In this document: positions 10,136 to 53,113 of the stretch, one piece after another
Position numbering within the stretch: position 1 is the first letter of the stretch
How the letters are laid out: each line of letters begins with the position of its first letter
Origin: an uncultured delta proteobacterium
GTDB lineage: Bacteria > Desulfobacterota > Binatia > JACPRU01
DNA length: 64,000 nucleotides
Assembly: GCA_963745025.1 (NCBI GenBank)
Contig: CAVUWD010000016.1
Location: 192,001-256,000 of the forward strand
Direction: 5' to 3'
Made by a program: the position numbers and the translations under genes
Notes under the pieces: generated by a model
Database searches by the model: none
Told to the model about the DNA's origin: nothing
Seen by the model: only the letters and a program-made list of their open reading frames with translations

Positions 10136-10141
10136 CGGCGG

Positions 10142-25393: not shown

Positions 25394-25427
25394 CAGCCCG
25401 CCGGGGCCGCGGTACCAGGCACGCCCC

Positions 25428-26411: not shown

Positions 26412-26444
26412 TCGGTCGCCTCGTGTATCGTACCGCCTCAGTTT

Positions 26445-29317: not shown

Positions 29318-30054
29318 GCGGGGGTACGAAATTCCAGGAGTCTCTGCTCGAGCGCGGATCGTCGCGCGCCGAGCAGTATCGCGACGCCGTGGTCGGCGCC
29401 GAGAGCGGTTGGCTCGGCCTCGCCTATTACGAGCTGGTGACCGCGATCTTCGGCGGCGCGCCCGGGGCTCTCGGCCTGGCGCTGCGCGGCGCTCTCTACC
29501 GGCCGCTCTTCGGGCGGCTCGGCCGCGGCGTCGTGCTCGGGCGAGGGCTCGTGCTGCGTCATCCGCGGCGCATCGCGATCGGAGACCGGGCGCTCGTCGA
29601 CGACGACTGCGTGCTCGACGCGCGCGGCGCGGCCGAGGGCCTGACGATCGGCGAGGGGACGCTGGTCAGCCGCGGCACGATTCTCTCGTGCAAAGAGGGT
29701 CCGATCACCGTGGGGGCGCGCGCGAATTTGGGCTGGCGCTGCGTGGTGAGCTCGGTGGGCGGCGTGGTCATCGAAGAGGCGGCGCTTTTCGCCGGCGGCT
29801 GCTACGTGGGCGGAGGGCGCTACCATCTCGACGATCGCGACCGCTCGATCGCCTCGCAGGGCAGCTTTTCCAAGGGTCCCGTGCACGTCGGCCGCGGATC
29901 CTGGATCGGGGCCCATGCGGTGATCCTGGACGGCGTGCGGGTGGGCGACGGCGCGGTGGTCGCCGCAGGGGCCGTCGTCGCCGATGACGTGCCGCCGTTC
30001 ACGATCGTCGGCGGCGTGCCGGCCCGGGTCATCCGTGAGCGTGGCGGCGGCTGA
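29314..30054 (+). CDS. Hexapeptide-repeat (LbH) acyltransferase
   Basis: Hexapeptide repeats, WIGAHAVILDGVRVGDGAVVAAGAVV, GGVPARVI. Confidence 0.9.
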   Translation: MSGGTKFQESLLERGSSRAEQYRDAVVGAESGWLGLAYYELVTAIFGGAPGALGLALRGALYRPLFGRLGRGVVLGRGLVLRHPRRIAIGDRALVDDDCVLDARGAAEGLTIGEGTLVSRGTILSCKEGPITVGARANLGWRCVVSSVGGVVIEEAALFAGGCYVGGGRYHLDDRDRSIASQGSFSKGPVHVGRGSWIGAHAVILDGVRVGDGAVVAAGAVVADDVPPFTIVGGVPARVIRERGGG

Positions 30055-31036
30055 GGCCGAGGGCGGAAGCCGCGGCTGGCTGAGGCCTCTCGCCTCGGTC
30101 GCGCTCACCGCCGCGCTCTGCTTCGTGCTCCTGCGCAGGGTCGACCTTCACGAGCTCGTCGACTGGCTCGCGCGCGTCGACCGGCGCTACTACGCCGGCT
30201 ACGTGGCGCTGTCGATGGCGGGGCTGCTCGCCCGCTCGTTTCGCTATCATCTGCTGATCGGGCGCTGGGTCGGCTTCGGGCCGCTCGTGCTGGTGACGGC
30301 TGCGCGGAATTTCCTCGTCGACTTGCTGCCCGCCCGACTCGGCTCGCTGAGCTACGTCTACCTGCTCACGAGACGCTTCGAGGTCCCGCTCGACCCGGTG
30401 CTGTCGTCCTTCGTTCTGACCTTTCTCTACGACTTGCTCGCCATGACGCTGCTTCTCGGCGTAGCGCTCGTCCTCGAGCTCGGCCGTTTCGCAGCGAGCG
30501 CCGCGCTCGGCGCCGTGACGACGATCTTCGCGATCATGGTCGTGTTGATGTTTGCGCGCCTGGTGCCGACCCTGCGCTTCGCTGCGACCCACCTCCACGC
30601 GCGGCCGCGGACCCGAAACATCGCCGCGCGACTCGATGAGGTCGCGCGCGAGGTCGAGCGAACCGGCGGAGCGCGGCAGACGGTCGCGCTGACCGCGCTC
30701 TCGTTCCTCATCCGCCTGCTCAAGTTCGCCGCCTATTGGGCGTTGCTCCTCGGAGTCGTGCGCGAGCATGGGCTCACCGCCGCGGATCTGCCGTTCTGGA
30801 AGGTCTTCCTCGGCATCGCCGGCGCCGAGCTGTCGGCGACGTTGCCGATTCACGGGATCGCCGGGTTCGGGACCTATGAAACGGCGTGGGCGCTCGGTTT
30901 CGCCAGGCTCGGCTATTCTGCCCGGGTTGCGATCCTCTCCGGCTTCGCGACGCACCTGCTGTCGCAACTCTACGACTATTCGGTCGGGCTCGTCGCGCTG
31001 GCGATCGCGCTCGCGTGGTCGCAGAAATTGAAATGA
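30035..31036 (+). CDS. Lysylphosphatidylglycerol-synthase TM domain (flippase-like) protein
   Basis: RSFRY, LLPARLG, LPIHGIAGFGTYE, multiple TMs. Start GTG 30035 or 30041. Confidence 0.8.
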   Translation: MSVAAAEAEGGSRGWLRPLASVALTAALCFVLLRRVDLHELVDWLARVDRRYYAGYVALSMAGLLARSFRYHLLIGRWVGFGPLVLVTAARNFLVDLLPARLGSLSYVYLLTRRFEVPLDPVLSSFVLTFLYDLLAMTLLLGVALVLELGRFAASAALGAVTTIFAIMVVLMFARLVPTLRFAATHLHARPRTRNIAARLDEVAREVERTGGARQTVALTALSFLIRLLKFAAYWALLLGVVREHGLTAADLPFWKVFLGIAGAELSATLPIHGIAGFGTYETAWALGFARLGYSARVAILSGFATHLLSQLYDYSVGLVALAIALAWSQKLK

Positions 31037-32010
31037 GCCCGCGCGCGCTCGTGACCGGGGCGGGTGGATTCCTCGGCTCCCATCTGGTGGAGGGGCTGCT
31101 CGGCGACGGGTGTGCGGTGCGCGCGCTGGCCCGGCCGACGAACGTCCCTCGCTGGCTGGCCGATCGCGGCGCCGAGATCGTCGTCGGTGACGTGACTGTT
31201 CGCGAGACGCAGGCGGCGGCGTGCCAGGGCTGCCAGGTCGTGGTTCATGCCGCGAGCCTGGTGACGGAGGTCGCCGTGCCCGACTCCGAATACTTCCGGG
31301 TGAATGCCGAGGCCTCGGAGGCACTCGCTCGGTCGGCCGCCCGTGCCGGTGTGAAGCGCTTCGTGTTCGTGAGCTCGACCAGCGTGCATCGCCCGAATTC
31401 GGGAAGGCCGCTCGACGAGAATACCGCGCTCGAGCCCCAAGATGCTTACGGCGGATCGAAGGCGGAGGCGGAGCGTCGGCTCGCCGCGGTCGCGGCCGAG
31501 ACGGGGCTCACGCTCGTCGTCGTACGGCCGTCGCGAATCTACGGTCCGCGCGACGCATCCCTCGGACGGGTCTTCCGCGCGATCGACCAGGGGCGATTCT
31601 GGCGGATCGGACCTTGCAGCGCGGAGGTGGACTTCGTCTACGTGAGCGACGTCGTCACGGCGCTTTGCCGCGCGGCCACGTGCGGCATCGGGGTCTATCT
31701 GGTCGGCGGCCCGGAGCGGGTGACCCTCGAGCGTTTCTTCACCGAGGTCGCCGCGGCGCTCGGGCGCCGTCTGCCGCGGCTTCGCCTGCCGCTTCGCCCC
31801 GCCATGCTCGCGGCCGGCGTCATCGCGCGGGCGTATACCGCCGTCGGGCGCGAGCCCCCTGTGGCCCCGAAGCGCTTCGCGTTCTTCCGCAACAGCCGCG
31901 TGGTGGCTGCCTCGCGGGCACGCATGGACCTCGGTTACGCTCCCACGGTTCACCTCCGCGAAGGAATCGCGCGCACCGCCGAGTGGTACCGCGAGTCGCG
32001 TTGGCGGTGA
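31033..32010 (+). CDS. NAD-dependent epimerase/dehydratase (extended SDR)
   Basis: VTGAGGFLG, YGGSK, IYGPRD. ATGA overlap. Confidence 0.9.
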   Translation: MSPRALVTGAGGFLGSHLVEGLLGDGCAVRALARPTNVPRWLADRGAEIVVGDVTVRETQAAACQGCQVVVHAASLVTEVAVPDSEYFRVNAEASEALARSAARAGVKRFVFVSSTSVHRPNSGRPLDENTALEPQDAYGGSKAEAERRLAAVAAETGLTLVVVRPSRIYGPRDASLGRVFRAIDQGRFWRIGPCSAEVDFVYVSDVVTALCRAATCGIGVYLVGGPERVTLERFFTEVAAALGRRLPRLRLPLRPAMLAAGVIARAYTAVGREPPVAPKRFAFFRNSRVVAASRARMDLGYAPTVHLREGIARTAEWYRESRWR

Positions 32011-32037
32011 GACCACCGCCGCGCGCGATCATCGCGC

Positions 32038-33483
32038 TCAAACGGAGCCGCTGGCCGAGCTTCCCTGCGGAACGGCGGGCTTTCGCGCGATCGCGATCAG
32101 CGACATGCCGAACGGAAGGCGCCACCGGCTCTCCAGCCGGAAAAGCGGCACGAGAAGGTCGTAGAGCGTCAGCTGCACGGGAGGAAACGTCGTGCGCTTG
32201 AGCAGTCGACTGTTCAGGTACCACCCGAAGACGCCGAGGAGGTTGAAAAACCAGCTCCCCTCGATCTCGAACCCGGCGCGACCGAGCTTGTCCAGGAGCT
32301 CGGCTCTCTCGTAGCGGCGGAAATGATCGAGAGCACGGTCGAGCGAGCCGTAGAGCGATTGCAGCGCGGGCACGAGCAGAATCAATCGGCCGCCGGGCTC
32401 GAGCAGCTCGTGGAAGGTTCGCAAGGCCCGTTCGTCGTCTTCGATGTGCTCGAGCACGTTCAGGCAAACCACCGTGTCGATGCGCTCCGCGCCGGGGAGA
32501 TCGACCGCGCCGTCGGTTTCCGTCGCCGGCGGCCGGTCGCCGAGATCGAACCGGCCGATCGTCACGTGCGTGTATGAATCGAAGAGGTGATGAAGAATCC
32601 GCAGATATTTGGCGTCGAGGTCGGTGGCGATCACGCGCTCGCGGCGCAGCAGAAAGCGGGTCATGTTGCCCACCCCGGCGCCGACCTCGAGCACGCGGCG
32701 ACCGACGTAGGGCTCGAGCTGCTCCCACATCCAGCGGTTGTAGCGGGAGACTTTCTGCATGCGCTGCAGAATGCGATATCCGGCGCGCTCGTTTTCCTCG
32801 TCGTCGACGAAGGCGTAGCGCAAGATCGTCGCGATCGCGGCGAAGCCGTCCCTCCAGCCGATCTTCTTGCCTTCCCAATAGTCGCGGCCGTGATACGAGA
32901 CGGGGACCTCGTACACGCGAAAGCCGAGGCGGGCGATCTTGGCGGTGATCTCGGGCTCGATGCCGAAGCGGTCCGAGCGCAGGCGCAAGCTCTTCACCAC
33001 CTCGCGCGTCATCATCTTGTAGCAGGTTTCCATGTCGGTGAGGTTCAGGTCGGTGACGAGGTTCGAGAGCAGCGTGAGGAAGCGGTTGGCGAGCTGATGC
33101 CGGAAGCGCAGCACGCGCCGCGGCCATCCGAGGAAGCGGGAGCCGTAGACCACGTCGGCTCGGCCGTCACGGATCGGCTCGATCAGCTTGTGGTAATCCT
33201 CAGGATCGTATTCGAGGTCGGCGTCCTGGATCACGACGACGTCGCCAGTCGCTTCCTCGAATCCTCGTCGCACGGCCGCTCCCTTGCCGCGGTTGTCGGG
33301 CTGGTAGAAGATGCGCAAGTTCGGCTCGGCGGGAAGCGCGGCGAGGAACTCGCGGGTACCGTCGGTCGACGCGTCGTCGACGACGAGGATCTCCTTGTCG
33401 AGTCCGACTGCCCGGACGCGCTTCAGGCATTCTTCGATGGTCGGGCGTTCGTTGTAGACCGGGATGACGACGGAAACTCGCAT
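32038..33483 (-). CDS. Bifunctional DPM-like GT2 / class I SAM methyltransferase
   Basis: VSVVIPVYNE, DDASTDGT, QDADLEY, DMETCYK, FGIEPE, then VLEVGAGVG, NVLEHIEDD, HFRRY. Confidence 0.92.
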   Translation of the reverse strand: MRVSVVIPVYNERPTIEECLKRVRAVGLDKEILVVDDASTDGTREFLAALPAEPNLRIFYQPDNRGKGAAVRRGFEEATGDVVVIQDADLEYDPEDYHKLIEPIRDGRADVVYGSRFLGWPRRVLRFRHQLANRFLTLLSNLVTDLNLTDMETCYKMMTREVVKSLRLRSDRFGIEPEITAKIARLGFRVYEVPVSYHGRDYWEGKKIGWRDGFAAIATILRYAFVDDEENERAGYRILQRMQKVSRYNRWMWEQLEPYVGRRVLEVGAGVGNMTRFLLRRERVIATDLDAKYLRILHHLFDSYTHVTIGRFDLGDRPPATETDGAVDLPGAERIDTVVCLNVLEHIEDDERALRTFHELLEPGGRLILLVPALQSLYGSLDRALDHFRRYERAELLDKLGRAGFEIEGSWFFNLLGVFGWYLNSRLLKRTTFPPVQLTLYDLLVPLFRLESRWRLPFGMSLIAIARKPAVPQGSSASGSV

Positions 33484-33855
33484 GGCAACGACAGAGCGGG
33501 TTCGTAGCGAAAATCGTGGGCCGACGCGAGTCAGCCGCCGGGCCCACCCGCATGCGGATACCTCGTGTCGCGTCAGCTGGCCCCCGCAGAACGCGCGGTA
33601 ATCTGCCCCCGTACGATGGCGGAACCGATCGCCCGATCGATTCCATGGCCTTCCCGGAGATTCACGACGGGTTGACACCTCGACCAGCCGGGAACGATCC
33701 GCGGCGCGAGGCGGCTGCCGCGCCCCGCTGTCGAGAATCGCGACGCGTGCCGGGGCCGGTGACCCGAGAATGATGTCGGAGGATCGTCGGTCGGGGAAAC
33801 TCCGGCCGCGGCAACTCGCTCTGTCCGCATCGATCCGCTATGGACCTGATTCGCC

Positions 33856-38827: not shown

Positions 38828-40189
38828 TCACGTCGTGTAGGCCGTCTCGCTGTGCTGCGAGAGATCGAGACCCATGCGCTCGTCGTCGATGGGCGCGCGG
38901 AGCGGCGTGATCGCATTGATGATCGTCAGTAGCAGGAAGCTGCCGACACCGCAGAAGACGTAGGTCGCGACCACCGCGATCAGCTGCTTCACCATGAGGC
39001 CGGGGTAACCGTACAAGAGACCGCCGTCGAGCCCGAGCGTGAGGGTCGGGATCGCCGAGTTCACGTCCTTGGTCGCGAACACGCCGGTCAAGAGAGCGCC
39101 GAGCGTCCCGCCGACCATGTGTACGCCGACGACGTCCAACGCATCGTCGTAACCGAAGCGTGCCTTCAAGCTGACGGCGGTGTAACAGATCGCGCCGGCA
39201 AGGCCGCCGATGACGAGGGACGCCATCGGCGTCACGAATCCCGAGGCGGGCGTGACGGCCACCAGGCCGGCGACCGCGCCGGACGCCGCGCCGAGGATCG
39301 TCGGCTTGCCGGATCGTGACCATTCGGCGAACATCCAGCCGAGCGCCGCCGCGGCGGCTGCCGTGTTGGTGTTGACGAAGGCGAAGGCGGCGAGCTCGCT
39401 CGAGGAGGTGGCGCTGCCCGCGTTGAACCCGAACCATCCCACCCACAGCAGCGACGCTCCCACGACGCAGAACGGCAGGTTGTGCGGCGGCATCGGCGTC
39501 TCGGGGTAGCCGACGCGCTTGCCGAGGTAGAGCGCGGTCACGAGCGCGGAGACGCCGCTCGAGATGTGAACGACGGTGCCGCCGGCGAAGTCGATGGCGC
39601 CCACCTTGGATGCGATCCAGCCCCCGCCCCAGACCCAATGGGCAAGCGGATTGTAGATGAACGTCGACCAAAGCAGCATGTAGAGCGCAAAGGCGGGGAA
39701 GCGGAGCCGCTCGGCGAACGTCCCGGAGATCAGCGCGGGAGTGATGATCGCAAAGGTCCCCTGGAAGGCGACGAACACCATCTGCGGGATCGTCGGCGCG
39801 GCTGAGTTTGCGGTGCCGAGGATGCCACGCAATCCGAAGTTCGCCGCGCCGCCGACGATGCCGCCGATGTCCGGGCCGAAGGCCATCGAATATCCGAAGA
39901 GCACCCACGTCACGCTGATCAAGGCGGCGCAGAAGAAGCTGTGCATCAGCGTCGACAGCACGTTCTTCGAGCGCACCAGACCGCCGTAGAAGAGCGCGAG
40001 CCCGGGGATCGTCATCATCAGCACGAGCACGGAGCTGGTGAGCATCCACGCGGTGTCGCCGGTGTCGAATTTCGGGGCCGCGGGCGCCGCGGCCTCTTCC
40101 GCCAACGCGGTCGCGGCACTGATCAGAGCGCCGAGGCCACCGGCAGCGGCCACGCGCAGGGCTGTGCTCCGACCATAAAATATTCTCAT
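38828..40189 (-). CDS. amtB: Ammonium transporter
   Basis: DTAWML, PGLALFYGG, FQGTFAIIT, DFAGGTVVH, WFGFNAGS, DDALDVVGVH (twin His). GGAGGAGG RBS. Confidence 0.97.
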   Translation of the reverse strand: MRIFYGRSTALRVAAAGGLGALISAATALAEEAAAPAAPKFDTGDTAWMLTSSVLVLMMTIPGLALFYGGLVRSKNVLSTLMHSFFCAALISVTWVLFGYSMAFGPDIGGIVGGAANFGLRGILGTANSAAPTIPQMVFVAFQGTFAIITPALISGTFAERLRFPAFALYMLLWSTFIYNPLAHWVWGGGWIASKVGAIDFAGGTVVHISSGVSALVTALYLGKRVGYPETPMPPHNLPFCVVGASLLWVGWFGFNAGSATSSSELAAFAFVNTNTAAAAAALGWMFAEWSRSGKPTILGAASGAVAGLVAVTPASGFVTPMASLVIGGLAGAICYTAVSLKARFGYDDALDVVGVHMVGGTLGALLTGVFATKDVNSAIPTLTLGLDGGLLYGYPGLMVKQLIAVVATYVFCGVGSFLLLTIINAITPLRAPIDDERMGLDLSQHSETAYTT

Positions 40190-40244
40190 TTTATCCTCCT
40201 CCACCGAGCGGGGGAGGTACAAGAGCGAAAAACCTGGGCTCGCG

Positions 40245-40697
40245 TCAAGAGAACGAGGGCAGCACGGCGCGGCGCAACGCGTCGAGGTCGACCGGTTTCG
40301 AGAAGAATTGGAAGGCGCCGAGTCGGAGCGCGAAGTCTCGGCTCTCGGGATCGGTCTGTCCCGAAAGCACCACGACACGGATTCGTCTGGAGCGGTAGCG
40401 GAAATCGTCACGCAGCCGCCGCAGGACTTCCCAGCCGTTGACGCCGGGCATCTTCAGGTCGAGGACCAGCGCGACCACGTTTTCGCGATCGAGGATCGGC
40501 CAGATCTCGCCACCGTCGTCGACGGGAATGGCGACGTAACCCTCGTTCGTCAGCGCACGCTGCAGGACGAGTCGAATCGTTTCGTCGTCGTCGGCGATGA
40601 GCACGATGGGAGACTCGGGTTGGGGGGCGAGAGAGGGAGCAGGGGAGGAGAGGCCGCGTCGGCGGCTCCCCCTCGCTCTTCCCCTGCTCGGCAGCAT
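40245..40697 (-). CDS. Single-domain response regulator (receiver)
   Basis: VLIADDD, LVLDLKMPGVNG, VVVLSG, FFSKP. Start ATG 40697 or GTG 40604. Confidence 0.85.
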   Translation of the reverse strand: MLPSRGRARGSRRRGLSSPAPSLAPQPESPIVLIADDDETIRLVLQRALTNEGYVAIPVDDGGEIWPILDRENVVALVLDLKMPGVNGWEVLRRLRDDFRYRSRRIRVVVLSGQTDPESRDFALRLGAFQFFSKPVDLDALRRAVLPSFS

Positions 40698-40704
40698 GGA
40701 AACT

Positions 40705-42451
40705 TCAGGCGGCTGCCCGATTGACGTGGATACCGACCATATCGGGGTAGCCGTGAGCGCCCATCTCGGGACCGTCGAGGCCCTCGAGCTTCCGTCTCCT
40801 CGCTGACGCGGATCGGCGTGATCAGGTCGCTGAGCTTGAACCAGACGTAGGCCATGCAGAAGCCGAAGACGGCCACCACGGCGGCGTCGATCAGCTGCAT
40901 CGACGAGCTGCGACGCGTCGCCGTAGAGCAGGCCGCGCACGCCGTCCGAGCCGTACGCCTTCACCATCGCGTCGCGGACCACGCCGTTCCAGCCCGCGCC
41001 GTACTCTCCCGTTGGCGAAGATGCCGACGGAGATGACGCCCCAGAGGCCGTTGACGCCGTGAACGGAGATCGCGCCGACCGGGTCGTCGACGCCGCGATT
41101 GTCGCAGAAGAAGACGCTGAAGACCACGAGCACGCCGGCGATGACACCGATGATCGCCGCGCCCAGGGGTCGACGAACGCGCAGGGCGCGGTGATCGCCA
41201 CCAGGCCGGCCAGCATGCCGTTGCACATCATCGACGGGATCGGGCTTCATGCCCTTGCCAGCATCATGGTGAGCATCGCGGCCGATCGGCGCCGGTGACG
41301 CTGGCGAGCATCGTGTTGACGACCACGAAGCTGATCCGCAGGTCGGTGCCGGCGAGCGTCGAGCCCGGATTGAACCCGAACCAGCCGAAGGCCAGGATGA
41401 ACGTGCCGAGCGATCGACCATCGGCATGTGGTGGCCGGGCATGGCCTGCGGCTTGCCGTCGACGTACTTGCCGATGCGCGGGCCGATGACGATCGCGCCG
41501 GCCAGGCCGATGACGCCGCCCATCGCGTGCACGACGCCCGAGCCGGCGAAGTCGACCGCGCCGTGGCCGAGGCCCCAGTTGATGCCCGACCTGGGCCAGC
41601 CAGCCGCCGCCCCACACCCAGTTGGCGTAGAGGCAGTAGGGCAGCGCCACCCACAGGCCGTAGAGGCAGAAGTTCTTCCACGCCCAGCGCTCGGCCATCG
41701 CGCCGGTCGGAATCGTGGCGGTGGTGTCCATGAACACCATCATGAAGAAGAACAGCGCCATCACGCTGACGTCGTCACGACGCCGTTCAGGAAGAAGCCC
41801 TTCGTGCCCGATCAGGCCGTATGTGAACACGCCCGTGGCGTTGCCGGCGGCATCGGTGGCCGCGCCGAGTCCCCAGCCGCTGTTCAGCACCGACGTGCCC
41901 GGTCCGAGCGACGAGTACCAGCCCGGCGCCACCGGGCCGTTGAACCAGTTGCCCCAGCCGATCGCGAAGCCGTAGGCCCAGAACGCGAAGCAGCCGAGCG
42001 GGTAGATCATGAAGTTCATGCCGATCGTGTGCGCCGCGTTCTTCGCGCGGCAGAGCCCGGTCTCGACCATGCAGAACCCGGCCTGCATGAACATGACCAG
42101 GAAGCCCGGCGATCAGCACCCACACGATGTTGATCGAGAACAGGTTGTGGGCGATGCGATCGTAGAGGTCGGTCAGCGCCAGCGAGGATGGCACGTCGCC
42201 CTTGCCGTCGCCGGCCGGCGTCGCCCACACTCCCGCGGCCGCGCCGGTCGGATCGGGCCACAGGGGCTTCGCGGGATCGGGGCTCGCCGCCGTGAAGTAG
42301 GTCGGTAGCTGCGGACCAGCCGGAGCCGGCGCGGCCGCGGGTCCTGCTCGGGCGCCTTCTCCTCCGCCGCGAGCCTGCCGGGCGTGCCGGCGAGCAGCGC
42401 GGCGATCCCCAGGGCACCGAGGAATCCGAGCGTCGCTCTCGAATGCTTCAT
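40705..42451 (-). pseudogene. amt: Second ammonium transporter, broken by many frameshifts (possibly sequencing error)
   Basis: FMQAGF, GAMAER, DFAGSGVVH, WFGFNPGS, LAGLVAIT, DDPVGAISVH and GLDGPEMG lie in order but in alternating frames. Confidence 0.85.
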
Positions 42452-44169: not shown

Positions 44170-44278
44170 GATCCCCGGCGATCGGTCGCTTCACGGGATG
44201 CCGTCGATGCCATCGCGGTTTTTTGGGAGTTGGTTCGAGCGGATGACCGGGGATCGTGAGTCGGGGCGCGGAGGACGC

Positions 44279-44313
44279 TGCCCGACAATTCAGCATTGCC
44301 TAGAGAATCGGCG
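44279..44313. promoter_or_regulatory. Two NtrC-like 17-bp enhancer boxes
   Basis: TGCCCGACAATTCAGCA and TGCCTAGAGAATCGGCG resemble TGCAC-N7-GTGCA and sit between two sigma54 promoters. Confidence 0.45.
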
Positions 44314-44386
44314 GCCTCTCGCGCGCAAGTTCACACCTGACGCGCGACCACTTCGATCGGCAGCACCATTCCGCGCTCGCCTTCGT

Positions 44387-44402
44387 TGGTATTGCCCTTG
44401 CA
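44387..44402 (+). promoter_or_regulatory. Sigma54 (-24/-12) promoter for the second P-II gene
   Basis: TGGTAT-TGCCC-TTGCA, with GG and GC 10 nt apart. Confidence 0.7.
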
Positions 44403-44629
44403 CCCAAAAACGCGGAGGGTTGACCCGTGAGTCTGAGGATGGATCTGCCGAGGCCCCTCGACGGATTCACAGTTCGACCGAAGACGAGATGCGAGGGCGG
44501 GCGGGCTAATTTCGCAACTCGGTCGCCGTTCTGTTCATGAACCGGAGCTTCTTTCGCCGTCGCGGTCGGACGGTCACCGCACAGTTCCTGAAGCGGGTCG
44601 GTCTCGGCCCGGCCGCCCGGGGCGAGTGC

Positions 44630-44968
44630 GTGAAGAAGGTCGAAGCGATCATCCAGCCGTTCAAGCTGGACGAGGTCAAAGCCGCTCTGGCGGCCGAGGG
44701 CATCCGCGGCATCACGGTCATGGAGGTCCAGGGGTTCGGCCGCCAAAAGGGGCACCCGGATCTCTATCGAGGCGCCGAATACGCCATCGACTTGCGTAAC
44801 AAGATCAAGCTCGAAATTTTCGTTGCTGCGTCTCAAGTGGCCACCGTCTGCAAGACGATCGAGCAGAGCGCCAGGACCGGACGCATCGGCGACGGGAAAA
44901 TCTTCATCAGCCAGGTCGACGAGGTCGTGCGGATTCGCACCGGCGAGCGCGGAACCGAGGCACTGTGA
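44630..44968 (+). CDS. glnB: P-II family protein (divergent T-loop)
   Basis: 112 aa from [38 protein letters not shown]. glnB vs glnK cannot be decided. Confidence 0.9.
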   Translation: MKKVEAIIQPFKLDEVKAALAAEGIRGITVMEVQGFGRQKGHPDLYRGAEYAIDLRNKIKLEIFVAASQVATVCKTIEQSARTGRIGDGKIFISQVDEVVRIRTGERGTEAL

Positions 44969-45111
44969 GAATCGCAATCGCGGCGGTGGCCACCGTGGTG
45001 GTGCTGCTCGTCGGCGTCGCCGGGGCGCCTCCGCTGCCCGTGGCTATCGGCGGCCTGGCGGCGTTCGGGTGGATCTGGTGGCGCTCGGGGCGCGGTGCCG
45101 CGAAGCTCTGA
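44965..45111 (+). CDS. 48-aa two-TM small membrane protein (not in the ORF track)
   Basis: GTGA overlap with the P-II stop. MRIAIAAVATVVVLLVGVAGAPPLPVAIGGLAAFGWIWWRSGRGAAKL. Confidence 0.55.
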   Translation: MRIAIAAVATVVVLLVGVAGAPPLPVAIGGLAAFGWIWWRSGRGAAKL

Positions 45112-45138
45112 ACGGAGGCTCGCCCGGCCGGCGCCGTG

Positions 45139-45303
45139 TCAGGCGCCGCGCTTGGCCATCAGGATCCGGCGCCGCAGCGCGAGCACGGTCTCGTCTCGCC
45201 GGATCCAGCAGCGCGTCTCGACGTAGAGCACGCCGCGGCCCGGCCAGTGCTGGACGAGCTCGCCGACCGCGTAGTCTTCGAAGAATCGTCCCCGCCGCTG
45301 CAT
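45139..45303 (-). pseudogene. MaoC-family dehydratase remnant with an in-frame internal deletion (54 aa, not in the ORF track)
   Basis: MQRRGRFFEDYAVGELVQHWPGR joined to GVLYVETRCWIRRDETVLALRRRILMAKRGA: the MaoC N- and C-termini without the catalytic middle. Confidence 0.7.
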
Positions 45304-45363
45304 GCGATTCCCTGCTTGCGGTCTCTTCCGAAATGGGACAATTTCGACAAAGGCAAGTTCGGC

Positions 45364-46506
45364 ATGTCGTTAGAGCTCCGAGAAGAAACGATCGACGCCG
45401 TCCTCCGCGAGGCACGGACGCTTGCGCCTGCAATCGCTCTACCGTCGCGCGACGACTCGGGACGCGAGCTTTCCGTCGCCGAGATGGTGGCGTTCTTCTA
45501 TTCCAAGCATGACGCCGAGAGCCTCCGGGCGGCGGCCGTCGCCCGACGCGGGCGGCGTGCCTTCGATCTCGAGACGTTCTCGCCCCTCTACCTGACCAAT
45601 ACCTGCGACTCCGAATGCAAGATGTGCGGAATGCGGAGGGACAATCGGGAGCTCGAGCGGCAGACCGCGAATCCCGCGGAGATCCAAGGACAGCTCGAGA
45701 TCCTTTGGGCACGAGGAGTCTTGGCGGTCGCGCTGCTCACCGGCGAGTACCAGCGCGATACCCGACAGTGGTCGATCGCGCTGACGCGCGACGCGCTCCG
45801 CCGGGCGCTCACGCTCGGCTTCCGCCACATATTGATCAACATCGGGTCGCTCGACGAGCGCGAGCTCGCGGATCTGCTTGCCGACGTCCCGCGCGGCGCC
45901 GACGGCCGCACGCTGCCCAAGGTGACTCTCTGCACCTTCCAGGAGACCTACGACCGCGAGACCTACCGCCGCTTCATGGGTGACAATCGCGAAAACCCGC
46001 GCGCCGACTTCGAGCGGCGTCTGGAAAACTTCGATCGCGCCGCGCGTGCCGGGATGCGTGTCGTCAATCCCGGCGTGCTGCTCGGTCTGTGTGCCGATCT
46101 CGCCTACGAGCTCACCGCGCTCGCGCTGCACGTTCGCCATCTACTCGCGCTCGGGCTCGAGGTCTACGTGTCGGTGCCGCGCCTGCGCCAAGCCTCCGGC
46201 GCCGAGAACTCGCGCGGTGTGTCCGACGACGAATTCGTCCGGCTCGTGGCGATACTCTCCTTGGGTGTTCCCGAGGCGAAGATCGTCATCACCACGCGGG
46301 AGTCGTCGGAAGTGCAGCGTCGGGTGTTGCCGATGGTGAGCGTGTTGTCGGCGGGCTCGTCGGCGGTCGCGCCCTATACCGAGACGGGAGCGCGCTTCCC
46401 GCTCGAAGCAAGCCAGTTCAAGGTCATCGACCAGCGACCGATCGAAACGATCCTCGCCGAGTACATCGCCGAGGGGGTTCGCTTCGAAAACTACCAAGCG
46501 CCGTAG
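45364..46506 (+). CDS. Radical SAM aromatic amino-acid lyase, NosL/NocL-like (3-methyl-2-indolic acid synthase-like)
   Basis: PLYLTNTCDSECKMC, QLEIL, LTGEY, NIGS, CTFQETYDRETYRRFMG, NPGVLLGL, SVPR, TTRE, VAPY and SQF match nosiheptide NosL as recalled. No HydG C-terminal Cys motif. Confidence 0.85.
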   Translation: MSLELREETIDAVLREARTLAPAIALPSRDDSGRELSVAEMVAFFYSKHDAESLRAAAVARRGRRAFDLETFSPLYLTNTCDSECKMCGMRRDNRELERQTANPAEIQGQLEILWARGVLAVALLTGEYQRDTRQWSIALTRDALRRALTLGFRHILINIGSLDERELADLLADVPRGADGRTLPKVTLCTFQETYDRETYRRFMGDNRENPRADFERRLENFDRAARAGMRVVNPGVLLGLCADLAYELTALALHVRHLLALGLEVYVSVPRLRQASGAENSRGVSDDEFVRLVAILSLGVPEAKIVITTRESSEVQRRVLPMVSVLSAGSSAVAPYTETGARFPLEASQFKVIDQRPIETILAEYIAEGVRFENYQAP

Positions 46507-46551
46507 GCGCGGGTGGACGTCTCGGCCGGGCGGTCGTCCAGCGGATCGGGC

Positions 46552-47910
46552 TCAGGCCTTCATCAGCCGGCGGCGCCGGAGCCGGGTCCGCAGCACGCGG
46601 CCGAGCACGTTTAGGGCCGTCGCGGCATCCATCCTCGGCCACTCCAGGAGCGCCTCCATGACGCTCGCCGGCTTGCGTCCGGGCCTTCGCCAATCCGCGA
46701 TCTGCGTCGGCTTGTAGACCTTCGGCGTGCGCACGAGCGCGGTCGGATCCAGCAGGTCGCCGCGTCGCGCGGCCTCGGCCACCACCGGTACGCCGAGCTT
46801 CTCGCTCGCCGCGCGCACGGCCCGAACATCGATCGCGGGTCGAGCGCCGTCGACTTCCACGCAGAACACCACGTCCGCCGCGCGAATGACCGCGAAGAAG
46901 ACGCGCGAACCGTGCGCCTCCGCCAGATCGTAGCCGCAGTCGAGGATGTCGGCGGGGTAAACGCGCTTGCCGGCGAAATCGGCCACCTCGTCTTGCCGAC
47001 CGAGCAGGTCGATCGCCGGCTCGGGGCGGCCGCAGGCGCAGGGAATCACGCGGATGAAGTCGCGCGTCAGGTAGCGGACGAGCGGCATGGCCTTCGGGCC
47101 GAGGTGGGTGAGCGCGAACACGCCTGGCTCGCCGGGCTCGACCGGCTTCAGCGTTTCGGGATCGAGCACCTCCGCCACGAACAGGCGGGTGTCGAGGTGA
47201 AGCGTTCCCCGCTGGCAGGAGGCGCCGAGGAACAGCGTCTCGTTCGAGCCGTAGATCTCGCGCACCGTGACGCGCCAGTCGCGTTCGACCATGCGTCGCA
47301 TGGCGGCGGGCAGCGGCGCTCCGGCGAGCACCGCCATCTCGAGCGAGTCGAGCTCGCGAGCGGGATCGATGCCGAGCGTCAGCGCGAGCTCCCGGAGCAA
47401 GAACATTTCCAGCGGCAGACAAGCGATGATCTGCGGCCGCAGCGTGCGCAGAAAGTCGAGAGCGCGGGGGAAGGGGACGTCCCAGGAGAGGTTTCCGCAC
47501 GGAATGTGGCAGCCCCCTTGGAGCTGGAGTGCCGACTCGATGCAGAAGGAGATCGGCGCGAAGGAGGGGAAGCGATCGAGGAAGATCTTTCCCGGCGTCC
47601 ACTCGGGAAACCATCGCGCCACCGACTGCCCCATGATCGCGAATTCTTCCTTTCGGTACCAGCAGGCGATGGGCTGTCCCGTCGTTCCCGTCGATTCGTG
47701 ATAGTGCCAGAGTTCTTCGCGCGGCACCGCGAGCATGCCGAACGGCGTCGCCTCGCGGAGATGGTCTTTGCTGGTGACCGGCAAGCGATCGAGGTCGGCG
47801 AGCGAGCGCGCCTCGCTCTTCTTCAAATGCTCGGCGTAGAAGGGTGCGCGGCGCGCAAGCGACACGGTCTCGCGAAGGAGCGCCTCGGCGTCGGGATGGG
47901 TCGCGTACAC
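46552..47910 (-). CDS. Phenylacetate-CoA ligase (PaaK/F390) family adenylate-forming enzyme
   Basis: APFY, LPVTSKDHLR, HESTGTTGQP, EIYGSNE, MPLVRYLTRD, CACGR, LGRQDE. Confidence 0.88.
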   Translation of the reverse strand: MYATHPDAEALLRETVSLARRAPFYAEHLKKSEARSLADLDRLPVTSKDHLREATPFGMLAVPREELWHYHESTGTTGQPIACWYRKEEFAIMGQSVARWFPEWTPGKIFLDRFPSFAPISFCIESALQLQGGCHIPCGNLSWDVPFPRALDFLRTLRPQIIACLPLEMFLLRELALTLGIDPARELDSLEMAVLAGAPLPAAMRRMVERDWRVTVREIYGSNETLFLGASCQRGTLHLDTRLFVAEVLDPETLKPVEPGEPGVFALTHLGPKAMPLVRYLTRDFIRVIPCACGRPEPAIDLLGRQDEVADFAGKRVYPADILDCGYDLAEAHGSRVFFAVIRAADVVFCVEVDGARPAIDVRAVRAASEKLGVPVVAEAARRGDLLDPTALVRTPKVYKPTQIADWRRPGRKPASVMEALLEWPRMDAATALNVLGRVLRTRLRRRRLMKA

Positions 47911-47915
47911 GGGCG

Positions 47916-49613
47916 TCAGAACCGCGCCCAGAGCGGCGTCGGGTGAGGCGGTAACGTGTCGACGACGACGTCGAACTGGGCGAGCAGCGTTCCCTCCGCC
48001 TGCCGCAGAGCCGCGAGCGAGACGTTGTAGTCGATCAGCGCCTGGATCTCGGCGGCGCGCGCCGCGGTGACTCGCTGCTGGAAGTCCAGAATGTCCTTGG
48101 TCGTCGCCAGGCCGACGTCGTAGCGCTTCTTCTGCTGCTCGAGGTTTTCCTCGGCGAGCTCACGTGCGAGGCGCGTGACGGTGATGCGTTTCGAGTTCGA
48201 GCGCACGTTGCCGATGGCTTTCCGCGCCTCGAGCGTGACGTTGGCGAGGAGCTGGCGATAGGAGAGCTCACCACGACGGAGGTCGATCTGGCTCTGGACG
48301 TATTCCGCCTCGGCGGTCGTGTTGCCGAGCGGGACCGTGAAGGACAGGCCTCCCGAATAGGAATTGAAGTCGTCGCTCGCCAGCCGATCGAGGCTCTTGC
48401 CGTAATCCCCGGTGAACGGCGTGACCACCGTCTGGCCGGTCTGCGGATCGGTCTGCGGAACGCCGCGTCCCGACAGACCGTTGAGCCCGTAGCTGGCGTT
48501 CAGGTTCAGGCCGGGTAAGAGATTGTTGCGGTTGATCTTGGCGAGAATCTTGCGGTTCTCGATGTCGTAGCGCGCCTGCAGCACCTCCGGACGTCGCTCG
48601 ACCGCGTCGACCAGGATCTCCTGCTCGTCTACGGTGACGTCGCGAACCTCTGGGCTGTCGATCGGCTCGATCGGTCGGGGCACGAAGGCACCCTCGGGGT
48701 TGCGCTGGAGGAGCAGGCGAAGGCTGTCGGACGCGATGCTCACCGCGTTCTCGGCACTGATCACTCGCGCCTCGCGGCTCGCCGCGTCCGCTTCCGCCTC
48801 CTTGACGGCGACCGGCGGAAGAGTGCCCGCGCGGACACGGGCCTCGTTCTCCCGGAGGAGCGTCTGCGCGAGCCGCAGGCCATCCTGCTCCGCCTTGAGG
48901 TTTTCCCTTGCCTGCACGACGCCCCAGTAGGCCTCGACGACCTGCCGCACGAGCGCCACGGCCCGAGACAGGTACTGGTAGTAGGCGACGCTCGAGTTCG
49001 CCTCCGCGGAGCGCACGAGTAGGATCGTCAGGTCGATGCCGAAGTTCTTGAGCAGCGGCTGCGACACGCTGAACAAGACAGTCGGAAGGTACTGGGGGCG
49101 CAGGCCGTAAAACCGCGAGTTGGTATCCGTCTCCGTGGAGCTGCCGGCGATGGTGAACGTCGCTCCCGAGCGCAGCAGCTTTTGCAGCGACAGTGCGTAG
49201 ACGTAGTCTTTCTCGCGGAGCACTTGCGCGCCCTGCAGAACGGAGCTCGCAGGAACGACCGAGCGCTCGACGGTTCCGCTCGCCTGGAACGTCGGGTCGA
49301 AAATGCCGTTGGCGCGATCGACGTCGGCGCGCGCGAACTCGGGTCCGAGGCGCTCGACGGCGATTCCCGGATTGTTCTGGAGCGCAGCCGCAACTGCCTC
49401 GCGCAACGACAGGCGCTCGAGCGTATCGTCGCGGCTCTCGAGGTAGGCTCGTGGCTCGGGCTTCGGCTGGATGCTTTCGCTCGTCCACTGCTCGCGGAGC
49501 TGCTTCGGGAAGGAGGGAATGGGGAAGTCGTCGCTGGCCGATCCGGCGAAGACTGCGGTCGGAACGATCGAGCAGACGAGCAGCGCGGCGCCGATGACGA
49601 CGAATCGGTTCAT
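47916..49613 (-). CDS. TolC family outer-membrane efflux protein
   Basis: LSLREAVAAALQNN, SQPLLKNFG, VVEAYW, RPEV, FTVPLGN, RYDVGLAT, DYNVSLAAL. Confidence 0.92.
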   Translation of the reverse strand: MNRFVVIGAALLVCSIVPTAVFAGSASDDFPIPSFPKQLREQWTSESIQPKPEPRAYLESRDDTLERLSLREAVAAALQNNPGIAVERLGPEFARADVDRANGIFDPTFQASGTVERSVVPASSVLQGAQVLREKDYVYALSLQKLLRSGATFTIAGSSTETDTNSRFYGLRPQYLPTVLFSVSQPLLKNFGIDLTILLVRSAEANSSVAYYQYLSRAVALVRQVVEAYWGVVQARENLKAEQDGLRLAQTLLRENEARVRAGTLPPVAVKEAEADAASREARVISAENAVSIASDSLRLLLQRNPEGAFVPRPIEPIDSPEVRDVTVDEQEILVDAVERRPEVLQARYDIENRKILAKINRNNLLPGLNLNASYGLNGLSGRGVPQTDPQTGQTVVTPFTGDYGKSLDRLASDDFNSYSGGLSFTVPLGNTTAEAEYVQSQIDLRRGELSYRQLLANVTLEARKAIGNVRSNSKRITVTRLARELAEENLEQQKKRYDVGLATTKDILDFQQRVTAARAAEIQALIDYNVSLAALRQAEGTLLAQFDVVVDTLPPHPTPLWARF

Positions 49614-49689
49614 GGATCCTCGCCGCTTATGCGCCACCTCCAGGGAAGTCAAACCAGAGGGTTGCAATTGTCTTCGCATGGCCTTTTCC

Positions 49690-49953
49690 TTATGTTTGGG
49701 GCGGTGACGAGGACCAGCGCCGCGAGGGGCCGCAGCGTACGCTACCAACGGGCTCTTCTTCGGTGAGTTCCTGGCAGGCCGAGAATTGCTGCTCGAGTAC
49801 ATCGAGCGGATCGAGATCATCCGCGGACCGGTATCGGCGCTCTATGCTCAGGCCGTCGCAGATCGGCGTGCGGGCCTCGATCGTCACCGCGTCGCCGCCA
49901 ACCGACGGGTCGAAGATCAGTTGGGTGTGAATTTCGTACCCGCCTTCCGTCAC
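49690..49953 (-). CDS. Small hypothetical protein
   Basis: Acidic, globular-looking tail of ORF 49690-50268 that fills the gap upstream of tolC. No motif recognised. Confidence 0.3.
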   Translation of the reverse strand: MTEGGYEIHTQLIFDPSVGGDAVTIEARTPICDGLSIERRYRSADDLDPLDVLEQQFSACQELTEEEPVGSVRCGPSRRWSSSPPQT

Positions 49954-51691: not shown

Positions 51692-51792
51692 TTCATGGGC
51701 GGGGCGCCCCCTCACCATTTGCCCAGATGCCGAGATGATCCACGACCACCCGGCGTTGACGGAAGCCGGGTCATTGGCTAGAGGAGCCACTG

Positions 51793-51888
51793 GAAGTGCG
51801 CAACTGGCGAAGTGGATGCACCACGAGGGAGCGCGCTTCTTCCACTCGTGATCGGGTGGATGAGTCGAGCGGGTCGCACGCCTGGGCC
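51793..51888 (+). ncRNA. ZMP/ZTP (pfl) riboswitch
   Basis: P1 GAAGTGCGC/GCGCGCTTC, ACTGGCGAA, GTGG-ATGCA-CCAC, GAGGGA, linker, then GGTCGCACGCCTGGGCC with the GGCG/CGCC pseudoknot. Confidence 0.88.
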
Positions 51889-51922
51889 TCCGCGGGAGCG
51901 ATGAGGTGCCGGGCTTTTTTTT
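51880..51922 (+). terminator. Intrinsic terminator of the riboswitch expression platform
   Basis: GCCTGGGCCTC pairs with GAGGTGCCGGGC, followed by 8 T. The 5' arm overlaps riboswitch P3. Confidence 0.8.
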
Positions 51923-51958: not shown

Positions 51959-53113
51959 ATGATGATCAAGAGATACCTGCTGACCCCAGGGCCGACGCCA
52001 GTACCTCCGGAGGTGGCGCTGAAGATGGCCGAGCCGATCATCCACCATCGCACTCCGGAGTTCAGCAAGATTTTCTCCGAGGTTCGCGGCGGCCTGCAGA
52101 GGCTCTTCCAGACGGCAGGGGACGTGCTCGTGCTGGCCAGCTCCGGCACCGGCGCGATGGAAGCATCGGTGGTGAACCTGCTCTCGGCGGGGGACCGCGT
52201 CATCGTCGTGAACGGCGGTAAGTTCGGCGAGCGCTGGACGAAGATCTGCCAGAGCTATGGCGTCGTGGTCGAGGAACTCAAGGTCGAATGGGGCGAGGCC
52301 GTGGCGGTCGACCGCGTGCGCGCGGCGCTCGAGCAGTTTCCCGACGCCAAGGCGCTGCTCGTCCAGGCGAGCGAGACCTCGACGACCGCCGTTCATCCGG
52401 TCGAGGAGATCGCCGCGCTCACCAGAACCCGCGAGACGCTGCTCATCGTCGACGGCATCACCGCGGTCGGCGTGTACGACGTGCCGATGGATCGCTCCGG
52501 AATCGACGTGCTCGTGACGGGATCGCAAAAAGCGCTAATGCTGCCCCCCGGCCTCGCTTTCGTGGCGCTCAGCGAGCGCGCCTGGAAGCGCGCGGACAAG
52601 CCGCATCTGCCGAGCTTCTACTTCGACCTGAATCGCGAACGGAAGAACCAGGGGGACAATACGACGGCGTACACGCCGGCCGTGTCGCTCGTCTTCGGAC
52701 TCCATGCGGTGCTCGAGATGCTCGAGCAGGAAGGTTACGAGAACGTGTTTCGCCGCCACGCGCGGCTCGCCGCCGCGACGCGTGCCGCCGGAGCCGCGCT
52801 CGGCTTGAAGCCGCTCGCGCCGCTCGCGCCGAGCCCGGCGGCCACCGGTCTCTACATGCCGGCCGGCCTCGACAGCGGCAAGCTCACCAAGTACCTGCGC
52901 GACAAGGTGGGCGTCAGCTTCGCCGGCGGGCAGGATCATCTGAAGGGCAAGATCGTGCGCATCGCGCACATCGGCTACTTCGGCGATTTCGACATCGTGA
53001 CGGCGATCGCGGCGCTGGAGATGGCGCTCACCAAGTTCGGCGCACGCGTCGATTTCGGCAGCGGAGTCGCGGCTGCGGAGCGCGTGCTCGTGGAAGGCTT
53101 GCCGTCCGTGTGA
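51959..53113 (+). CDS. Class V aminotransferase (alanine/serine-glyoxylate type, probably acting as phosphoserine aminotransferase)
   Basis: LLTPGPTPV, SSGTGAMEA, GKFGERW, IVDGIT, GSQKALMLPPG. Directly upstream of serA. Confidence 0.92.
   Translation: MMIKRYLLTPGPTPVPPEVALKMAEPIIHHRTPEFSKIFSEVRGGLQRLFQTAGDVLVLASSGTGAMEASVVNLLSAGDRVIVVNGGKFGERWTKICQSYGVVVEELKVEWGEAVAVDRVRAALEQFPDAKALLVQASETSTTAVHPVEEIAALTRTRETLLIVDGITAVGVYDVPMDRSGIDVLVTGSQKALMLPPGLAFVALSERAWKRADKPHLPSFYFDLNRERKNQGDNTTAYTPAVSLVFGLHAVLEMLEQEGYENVFRRHARLAAATRAAGAALGLKPLAPLAPSPAATGLYMPAGLDSGKLTKYLRDKVGVSFAGGQDHLKGKIVRIAHIGYFGDFDIVTAIAALEMALTKFGARVDFGSGVAAAERVLVEGLPSV

Follow-up and report, generated by a model that had tools for sequence, protein, structure and literature searches.

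What use has a bacterium for a NosL-like enzyme when no thiopeptide genes surround it? Radical-mediated rearrangement of a carbon skeleton has its textbook example in NosL, which to our knowledge is known only from thiopeptide antibiotic clusters. The gene that raises the question lies at 45364-46506 on the plus strand of a 64,000-nucleotide stretch of DNA (hereafter the window) from an uncultured, Binatia-labelled bacterium, and encodes a predicted radical S-adenosylmethionine (SAM) enzyme, here called P0001. A first-pass annotation had described the gene as an orphan NosL/NocL-type tryptophan lyase outside any thiopeptide cluster. The analysis presented here assigns P0001 to the NosL branch of its superfamily, sets it apart from NosL itself, and provides it with a partner. 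We consider it rather likely that P0001 produces a carboxylic acid of the aryl, probably indolic, type and that a neighbouring ligase activates this acid for a lipid- or polyene-type product.

45364-46506, plus strand: NosL-like radical SAM aromatic amino acid lyase (P0001), 380 residues, with [4Fe-4S] ligands C81, C85 and C88 and with R312 and S329.

This region translates as an uninterrupted frame of 380 codons. The longest open reading frame (ORF) begins upstream, at GTG 45136, but since homologues are 377-395 residues long, ATG 45364 is the favoured start. In a window of 67% G+C, the frame displays the same codon-position G+C pattern as the genes around it. Comparison with three orthologues (74-84% amino acid identity) yielded ratios of nonsynonymous to synonymous substitution (dN/dS) of 0.17-0.20, indicating purifying selection; the gene is intact and is kept by selection. 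It is single-copy in its own genome (20 contigs, 92.65% complete, 7.6% contamination). Two Pfam domains were recognized, Radical_SAM (residues 76-236) and BATS (270-368), and an AlphaFold model built on a 16-sequence alignment reached a predicted local distance difference test score of 89.9 and a predicted template-modelling score of 0.90.

The ThiH/HydG/NosL aromatic amino acid lyases comprise enzymes of differing outcome, and several comparisons were used for placing P0001 among them. NCBIfam models scored the protein at 274.4 bits for NosL (TIGR04158), 158.5 bits for ThiH (TIGR02351) and 111.9 bits for HydG (TIGR03955), all of them below the respective equivalog cut-offs of 400, 380 and 312 bits. 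A HMMER search of the PDB returned NosL (6htk_A) with 255.7 bits (E 5.8e-75), as against 105 for ThiH and 98 for HydG. When the structural model was submitted to Foldseek, the best match was again NosL (4r33; template-modelling (TM) score 0.90, 41% identity), with ThiH at about 0.77 (0.76 upward) and HydG at 0.79-0.82. In a maximum-likelihood tree (quick IQ-TREE run, 45 rows), all NosL-like sequences were split from ThiH and HydG with an SH-aLRT support of 100. The match of P0001 to NosL is far beyond chance, and NCBIfam, PDB, Foldseek and tree agree on the grouping with NosL rather than with ThiH or HydG that the first-pass annotation had put forward. From its sequence, P0001 is best described as a member of the NosL-type, tryptophan-lyase branch.

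The residues themselves tell the same story. All 11 motifs listed earlier for this protein were located: CDSECKMC at residue 81, QLEIL at 110, LTGEY at 125, NIGS at 159, CTFQETYDRETYRRFMG at 190, ADFERR at 214, NPGVLLGL at 235, SVPR at 270, TTRE at 310, VAPY at 335 and SQF at 350. R312 is the Arg within TTRE, and S329 is the Ser that was said to follow it by 17 positions. On the HMMER alignment to 6htk_A, from the printed form of which the equivalences were counted by hand, P73 and Y75 correspond to NosL P88 and Y90, C81/C85/C88 to C95/C99/C102, N159 to N175, C190 to C200, R312 to R323 and S329 to S340; the correspondences put forward in the first-pass annotation were thereby confirmed. P0001 thus carries the NosL substrate-site residues (Y75, N159, R312, S329) together with the CX3CX2C motif (C81/C85/C88). 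As reported in PMC4916742, R323 is needed for formation of 3-methyl-2-indolic acid (abbreviated MIA) by NosL, and an R323K substitution turns the enzyme into a deaminase. A 25-sequence alignment further showed that the cluster motif of P0001 takes the NosL form, CxxxCKMCGM, instead of the CxxxCxYCGF found in ThiH and HydG, and that the protein has the NosL-type TGEY plus insert, places Asn159 at the position of ThiH E158 and Gln318 (as in NosL) at that of ThiH R306, and is without the one-residue insertion in strand beta8 (S321 in ThiH). The spacing from TTRE to VAPY equals that of NosL and is 2 residues longer in ThiH and HydG. In PMC9046217, such tyrosine-selecting features of ThiH and HydG are named and NosL is described as being without them. 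Since the HydG profile match stops at position 372/470 and P0001 contains only five Cys (81, 85, 88, 190 and 243), none of them C-terminal to 243, the HydG C-terminal auxiliary-cluster domain is absent, and with it the auxiliary-cluster cysteines whose absence had been pointed out at the outset.

Where the first-pass annotation went too far was in equating this protein with NosL and NocL. P0001 is 39-41% identical to NosL, and in the tree its clade (15 rows, support 94) was sister to 14 rows holding NosL and other NosL-like proteins (support 98), so on sequence grounds it is not an orthologue of NosL/NocL but a member of a separate sister clade. Among 36 representatives scanned with NCBIfam, P0132 alone cleared the NosL cut-off (573.5 bits); those closest to P0001 (P0122, P0123 and P0126) scored 251-252 bits with TIGR04158, and a further set 184-354. 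The clade is marked by substitutions beside the substrate site (SAGSS-AVAPY for NosL SPGSP-DVAPY; CTFQE for CVFQE or AVFQE) and by a longer insert after residue 170. An exhaustive HMMER scan of 1.84 billion cluster representatives recovered 829 proteins at E<=1e-3 and only 51 at E<=1e-30. In a word-indexed search with 859 matches, the best 120 were 55-88% identical to P0001; few of these 120 carry names, and those that do are attributed to Candidatus Binatia, Binatota or Deltaproteobacteria. The names given by JGI to the clade alternate between '2-iminoacetate synthase' and '3-methyl-2-indolic acid synthase', which is to say that public labels assign it to ThiH or to MIA synthase almost at random; the marker residues contradict the ThiH label. 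Two fused forms were seen among the related proteins: P0142 (711 residues) has a NosL-like domain behind an N-terminal extension of about 380 residues, and P0167 (906 residues) is a HydE-HydG fusion.

The distribution of the clade was then mapped at three levels. Of 201 genomes of the phylum, 57 gave a match at E<=1e-20; besides the source genome only G143 exceeded 50% identity, the remainder being 28-39% identical, which is the level of ThiH and HydG. Within the class, 41 of 151 genomes have the gene, patchily by family (f1 6/7, f5 14/17, f89 10/17, f90 4/8, f88 4/18, f97 2/2), and it was found in none of the 13 other families represented in those 151 genomes (including f86, 0/8, and f2, 0/7). 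A scan of GTDB species genomes, for which the alignment-based search used 8 sequences, confirmed 99 relatives, and 80 of these were retained. The 67 that are at least 50% identical bear submitter labels that are mostly Binatia, delta-proteobacteria or Myxococcota, labels of metagenome-assembled genomes (MAGs) being unreliable; the other 13, at 41-46% identity, derive from Actinomycetota, Pyrinomonadaceae, Nitrospira and a cyanobacterium, among others. The clade of P0001 is limited to MAGs, most of them carrying a Binatia label, of an uncultured lineage from soil and sediment. DNA runs labelled as bog and sediment metagenomes contain 26-52% of sampled words of 44500-48000. In four runs filed as RNA (two of them flagged as 'probably DNA') cover of the same interval was patchy with a depth of 1-3, and its gaps are not evidence of silence; a 218-nucleotide contig from run X20 matches 46098-46315 with one mismatch, which, given possible DNA carry-over, is compatible with transcription only.

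A clue to what the enzyme is for came from the gene next to it.

46552-47910, minus strand: PaaK-like adenylate-forming aryl-acid ligase (cluster c3), 452 residues, with a partial match to Pfam AMP-binding.

The two genes converge, with 46 nucleotides between their stop codons. In the PDB the ligase matches phenylacetate-CoA ligase (9s3l, 6e-45), AjiA1 (2e-42) and the PaaK-like ligase 6siw (5e-42) over nearly its full length, while its NCBIfam scores for BagE/FevW (155 bits, cut-off 800) and PaaK (139 bits, cut-off 646) remain below threshold. These nearest characterised relatives (PaaK, AjiA1, 6siw and BagE/FevW) all adenylate aryl or arylacetic acids. Orthologues of the ligase (E<=1e-40) occur in 40 of the 151 class genomes, and all 40 fall within the 41 that have the radical SAM gene; at the same threshold none was found in the 110 class genomes without it, the genome lists having been matched by hand. 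The sole exception, G326, has no ligase, and just 88 codons of its radical SAM gene are present, as a fragment where a contig ends. The link persists when the genes are far apart: they are separated by about 506 kb in G334 and by 11-45 kb in seven other genomes (G262, G227, G333, G269, G285, G255 and G293), and elsewhere they lie on separate contigs.

For a finer view of the neighbourhood, we took 8 kb on either side of the gene from 20 class genomes, called ORFs by codon-position G+C, clustered them, and named the clusters via Pfam and NCBIfam. One representative of each of 22 clusters was then used to probe the 80 GTDB loci and the window by tblastn, and counts are given for the 68 clade loci with at least 50% identity to P0001. 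The c3 ligase is present in 45 of the 68 and lies no more than 500 nucleotides from the radical SAM gene in 39; 30 loci have it upstream on the same strand, and 8 have it downstream in the convergent arrangement of the window. A benzoate-CoA-ligase-family enzyme (c1) occurs in 7 loci, and either c1 or c3 in 50. Flanks of at least 1.6 kb are available on either side of the gene in 47 loci, and in 35 of these a ligase lies within 1.6 kb. The ligase is a conserved partner, co-inherited with the NosL-like enzyme, and the word 'orphan' cannot stand for a gene whose partner lies 46 nucleotides downstream on the other strand, accompanies it in 40/41 genomes versus 0/110, and is operonic with it in most relatives. 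In one genome of the same genus we observed an 1131-residue protein encoded between the radical SAM gene and the ligase (L089:9231-12626, plus strand), with zinc-ribbon, adenylate/guanylate cyclase, AAA and TPR domains.

A third gene recurs with the pair. Immediately downstream and on the same strand, 33 of the 68 loci encode a PF03706 protein (LPG_synthase_TM/flippase-like; TIGR00374 above its cut-off). In L125, for example, the order is ligase (6504-7904), radical SAM gene (7920-9104) and flippase-like gene (9120-10148), with gaps of 15 nucleotides. The core in most relatives is a three-gene operon of ligase, radical SAM enzyme and flippase-like protein. Further neighbours recur in the 68 loci as follows.

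B12-binding radical SAM enzyme: 35 loci.
Beta-ketoacyl synthase (KS): 16 loci.
LpxL-type acyltransferase: 15 loci.
Tryptophan-halogenase-like FAD enzyme: 13 loci.
Methyltransferase (c19): 11 loci.
4HBT thioesterase, directly downstream: 6 loci.
Decarboxylase of the ornithine/diaminopimelate type: 5 loci.
Acyl-CoA:6-aminopenicillanic acid acyltransferase family (c35): 2 loci, directly upstream of the gene in both.

To judge by these family matches, the recurrent neighbours are enzymes that handle acyl thioesters or build lipids or polyenes. One locus (L094) holds two pairs of KS and chain length factor (CLF), a ketoreductase, two B12-radical SAM genes, an ICMT-like methyltransferase and a divergent PF03706 gene, and glycosyltransferases are also carried at relatives' loci. 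The source genome, which retains just the pair and the TolC-family gene at the window locus, has a cluster of related content on another contig (C19, about 250-265 kb; L177), comprising a methyltransferase, glycosyltransferases, an acyl carrier protein, KS and CLF, MMPL and PF03706 genes, as well as a c1-type (benzoate-CoA-ligase-type) ligase 54% identical to the c1 representative. We infer that this aryl-polyene-like cluster is a candidate destination of the enzyme's product.

Taken together with the chemistry of NosL, these data suggest the following pathway. By analogy with NosL, the [4Fe-4S] cluster held by C81, C85 and C88 would cleave SAM, and the resulting 5'-deoxyadenosyl radical would take the amino hydrogen from an aromatic amino acid that is bound against R312 and is most likely L-tryptophan. 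Fragmentation and recombination of the resulting substrate radical would yield a heteroaryl carboxylic acid. The ligase encoded at 46552-47910 (minus strand) would adenylate that acid and then either convert it to the CoA thioester or transfer it straight to an acceptor, and the acyl group would finally enter a membrane-associated product of the lipid or polyene type, not a thiopeptide. A more ambitious proposal, which we put forward tentatively and hold to be clearly less secure than the pathway just outlined, is that ligase, NosL-like enzyme and flippase-like protein form an undescribed, Binatia-restricted pathway and the first non-RiPP (RiPP: ribosomally made peptide that is modified after translation) use of a tryptophan lyase, in which an activated indole-carboxylate or a new rearranged aryl acid becomes the head or starter of a membrane lipid or an aryl-polyene-type pigment that is then flipped or exported to the envelope. 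No account of such a pathway was found in our literature search, outside of which lay most subscription journals and supplements. The trio constitutes a directly testable three-gene module.

Several observations weigh against this interpretation. P0001 falls outside the NosL/NocL clade and reaches 274 bits where the NosL cut-off is 400, and according to PMC9046217 the choice between Calpha-C and Calpha-Cbeta cleavage hinges on subtle differences that are unreadable from sequence, so that the product could differ from MIA. In the window no lipid or polyketide gene adjoins the radical SAM gene, only the ligase. Eighteen of the 68 loci have neither ligase in the available DNA, several of them being on short contigs, and of the 47 loci flanked by 1.6 kb or more on each side, 12 have no ligase within that distance. 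The partner ligase is not a NosI orthologue, and the parallel with NosL and NosI is functional only. The genomes compared are also kin, and co-occurrence counts overstate the number of independent events; kinship notwithstanding, the co-occurrence follows the patchy within-family distribution exactly.

The alternative that best survives is that P0001 has the same fold and the same partner and performs other chemistry, acting on another substrate (Tyr, Phe, His, a modified Trp or a non-amino-acid) or guiding the radical to another outcome, so that the acid formed is not MIA. Its place in a sister clade at 39-41% identity and below the NosL equivalog cut-off fits such a divergence, as do the clade-specific substitutions beside the substrate site and the longer insert after residue 170, and NosL is itself catalytically promiscuous as described in PMC4916742. 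However, every NosL position that had been named beforehand is conserved, the tyrosine-selecting markers are absent, and tryptophan-halogenase-like genes lie nearby in 13 of the 68 loci. We regard other chemistry as unlikely, if a serious competitor.

A second alternative was raised by the source genome itself. The first-pass annotation had noted that the window has no thiG or thiS, which is true of the window; the genome nevertheless has thiS-thiG-thiE elsewhere (contig C5:269-2059, the radical SAM gene being on C16), and a role for P0001 in place of ThiH or ThiO, supplying dehydroglycine to ThiG in thiamin thiazole synthesis, was examined for that reason. The genome has no canonical ThiH, there being no other match to P0001 at E<=1e-3, and its best ThiO matches score 134 and 78 bits against 250.8 and resemble dimethylglycine or sarcosine oxidases. 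A parallel reaction of NosL, described in PMC4916742, yields glyoxylate and 3-methylindole. If the enzyme replaced ThiO, the two should complement each other across the class, but they do not: 17 of the 151 genomes have both, 24 the enzyme only, 46 ThiO only and 64 neither. (ThiO was called at E<=1e-45, in 63/151 genomes with 55 over the cut-off; the lists were matched by hand, and the ThiO-only genome G281 is unpublished.) Families f86 (0/8) and f2 (0/7) are without both, and f5 mostly has both. Nor does the gene stand beside thi genes in any of the loci examined, its distribution tracks the PaaK-like ligase, and the tyrosine-lyase markers are absent. No support was found, and we rejected a ThiH or ThiO substitute role on phyletic grounds as very improbable. 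A separate matter emerged from these counts: 64 of the 151 genomes have neither a ThiO match (E<=1e-45) nor a NosL-like gene, and a canonical ThiH-level match was found in none of the 151, so that much of the class shows no recognised dehydroglycine source for thiazole synthesis; the source genome has thiS-thiG-thiE without a recognisable ThiH or ThiO.

Finally, service as a NosL orthologue to a thiopeptide cluster, or that of another RiPP, at some other place in the genome, such as surrounds the true NosL-clade loci L156, L157, L164, L165 and L166, can be dismissed as barely credible, because the 92.65%-complete genome has no YcaO while five control genomes tested positive, and because thiopeptide-locus neighbour types occur in 0/68 clade loci (by the 22-cluster neighbour probe, which included no direct YcaO probe). 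The LanB N-terminal domain gave no match in the genome, but the control genomes were silent too. The earlier statement that the window has no thiopeptide genes can accordingly be extended: no YcaO, and no second ThiH/HydG/NosL paralogue, was found in the whole genome.

With the alternatives weighed, production of an aryl acid for activation by the ligase remains our preferred explanation. Among the other features of the window, those nearest to the pair are these.

44537-44968, plus strand: P-II gene, upstream of the radical SAM gene.
44966-45112, plus strand: small, strongly hydrophobic ORF of 48 codons, overlapping the P-II stop (GTGA overlap).
45139-45303, minus strand: MaoC-like dehydratase remnant of 54 codons, residues ~56-144 deleted in frame.
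47916-49820, minus strand: TolC-family outer-membrane channel (c21), 634 residues, Pfam OEP; TIGR01844 119 bits, below cut-off.

The hydrophobic ORF may encode a small membrane protein that is co-translated with P-II. An operon with the upstream P-II gene was considered for the radical SAM gene and rejected, as this small membrane ORF and the minus-strand MaoC remnant intervene. In the loci of the six closest relatives the MaoC gene is full length (181-215 residues) and lies divergent to the radical SAM gene. The MaoC Pfam match was obtained for L061:9047-9694; tblastn of the L089 MaoC protein against the window recovered residues 22-55 and 145-181 in one frame. The TolC-family gene ends 5 nucleotides before the ligase start on the same strand, and because of this gap the ligase, which stands behind it, is probably co-transcribed with it. 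The two genes are neighbours in the window and at 3 of the loci from the 6 close relatives (L089, L090 and L091), and we count the TolC-family gene only tentatively as a member of the ligase/radical SAM system. In an Rfam search of 44200-46700 (E<=5), nothing credible as a riboswitch or leader preceded the radical SAM gene. The only Rfam match at gathering score in the window is a ZMP/ZTP riboswitch at 51790-51894 (plus strand; 47.1 bits, gathering 39), which lies directly upstream of a class-V aminotransferase gene (51959-53113, plus strand); an aminotransferase of the same cluster (c12) occupies the same position in a relative's locus, L062.

Two further regions of the window were recorded in passing. 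At 38828-42094 (minus strand), two ammonium-transporter (Amt) genes surround a response-regulator receiver domain. The second of them (41264-42094, with fragments in 40245-41231) matches Pfam positions 11-146 and 253-276 only, and looks frameshifted or misassembled in comparison with the 516-573-residue copies of sister species. The region 25389-33837 holds a sugar/lipid-type group with an epimerase, an asparagine synthase, a second epimerase, a GT2-methyltransferase fusion and two PF03706 flippase-like genes (about 28379-29257 and 29924-31036); the whole genome contains 9 PF03706 matches.

How does this system compare with those already known? With NosL and NocL, the MIA synthases that act in making nosiheptide and nocathiacin (TIGR04158; PDB 4r33 and 6htk), P0001 shares the fold, the CxxxCKMCGM motif, the equivalents of P88, Y90, N175, C200, R323 and S340, the absence of tyrosine-lyase markers, and an enzyme encoded alongside that activates carboxylic acids. 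It differs in its 39-41% identity and sister-clade position, in the lack of thiopeptide genes in the window and of YcaO in the genome, in a Binatia-labelled rather than Actinomycetota host, and in a partner ligase of another ANL subfamily than NosI. A thiopeptide pattern was recognized at loci of 42-46% identity in Nonomuraea, Actinoplanes, Actinoalloteichus and two MAGs, one of Pyrinomonadaceae and one labelled 'Deltaproteobacteria', and consists of a divergent radical SAM gene (NosN-like) together with genes for NosL, YcaO, LanB-type dehydratases, an alpha/beta hydrolase and an AMP-binding enzyme. In nosiheptide biosynthesis, as set out in PMC5585349, MIA is adenylated by NosI, which also loads it on the carrier NosJ. 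We tested whether the PaaK-like partner is a NosI orthologue and rejected it: BLASTP of two c3/NosI-like pairs gave best E values of 0.057 and 0.93, and the NosI-like protein L157:9867-11156 matches canonical ANL enzymes instead. Since the two types of ligase have no detectable similarity, the two systems resemble each other in combining a lyase with an acid-activating enzyme by analogy and not by inheritance. Two other MAGs, of Desmonostoc (L153) and Polyangia (L161), have NosL-like genes of 41-44% identity with no thiopeptide genes and no adjoining ligase; the context of one includes another radical SAM enzyme and DinB, dihydroorotate-dehydrogenase-like and creatininase-like genes, and that of the other is a run of family-less genes. 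These two genes are further uncharacterised uses of the NosL-like fold.

With ThiH and HydG, P0001 has in common the superfamily, the TIM-barrel fold and the Arg that faces the substrate amino group (R300 in TcThiH, R312 in P0001). It is distinguished from them by the absence of R306, of the beta8 insertion with S321, of E158 and of CxxxCxYCGF (markers as given in PMC9046217), by the missing HydG C-terminal domain, by a gene that is not beside thiG, and by the lack of ThiO complementarity. The partner, for its part, resembles PaaK-type ligases (phenylacetate-CoA ligase, AjiA1, 6siw, BagE/FevW) in a near full-length match with E values of 1e-42 to 1e-45, yet it falls below every NCBIfam cut-off and belongs to a group of its own that is inherited with the NosL-like enzyme.

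The closest parallel for the wider gene set is presumably the one with aryl-polyene, flexirubin and xanthomonadin clusters. Such clusters begin from an ATP-activated aryl acid; B12-radical SAM and PF03706 flippase-like genes are atypical of them, and we know of none that makes its aryl starter with a radical SAM lyase. At the window locus, only the ligase adjoins the radical SAM gene. The relatives' loci resemble clusters of this type in their aryl-acid ligase, KS/CLF, ketoreductase, LpxL-type acyltransferase, 4HBT thioesterase, methyltransferases, glycosyltransferases and halogenase-like enzyme. A conserved sister clade of NosL that is tied to an aryl-acid ligase and to lipid and polyketide genes suggests a second, undescribed use of NosL chemistry.

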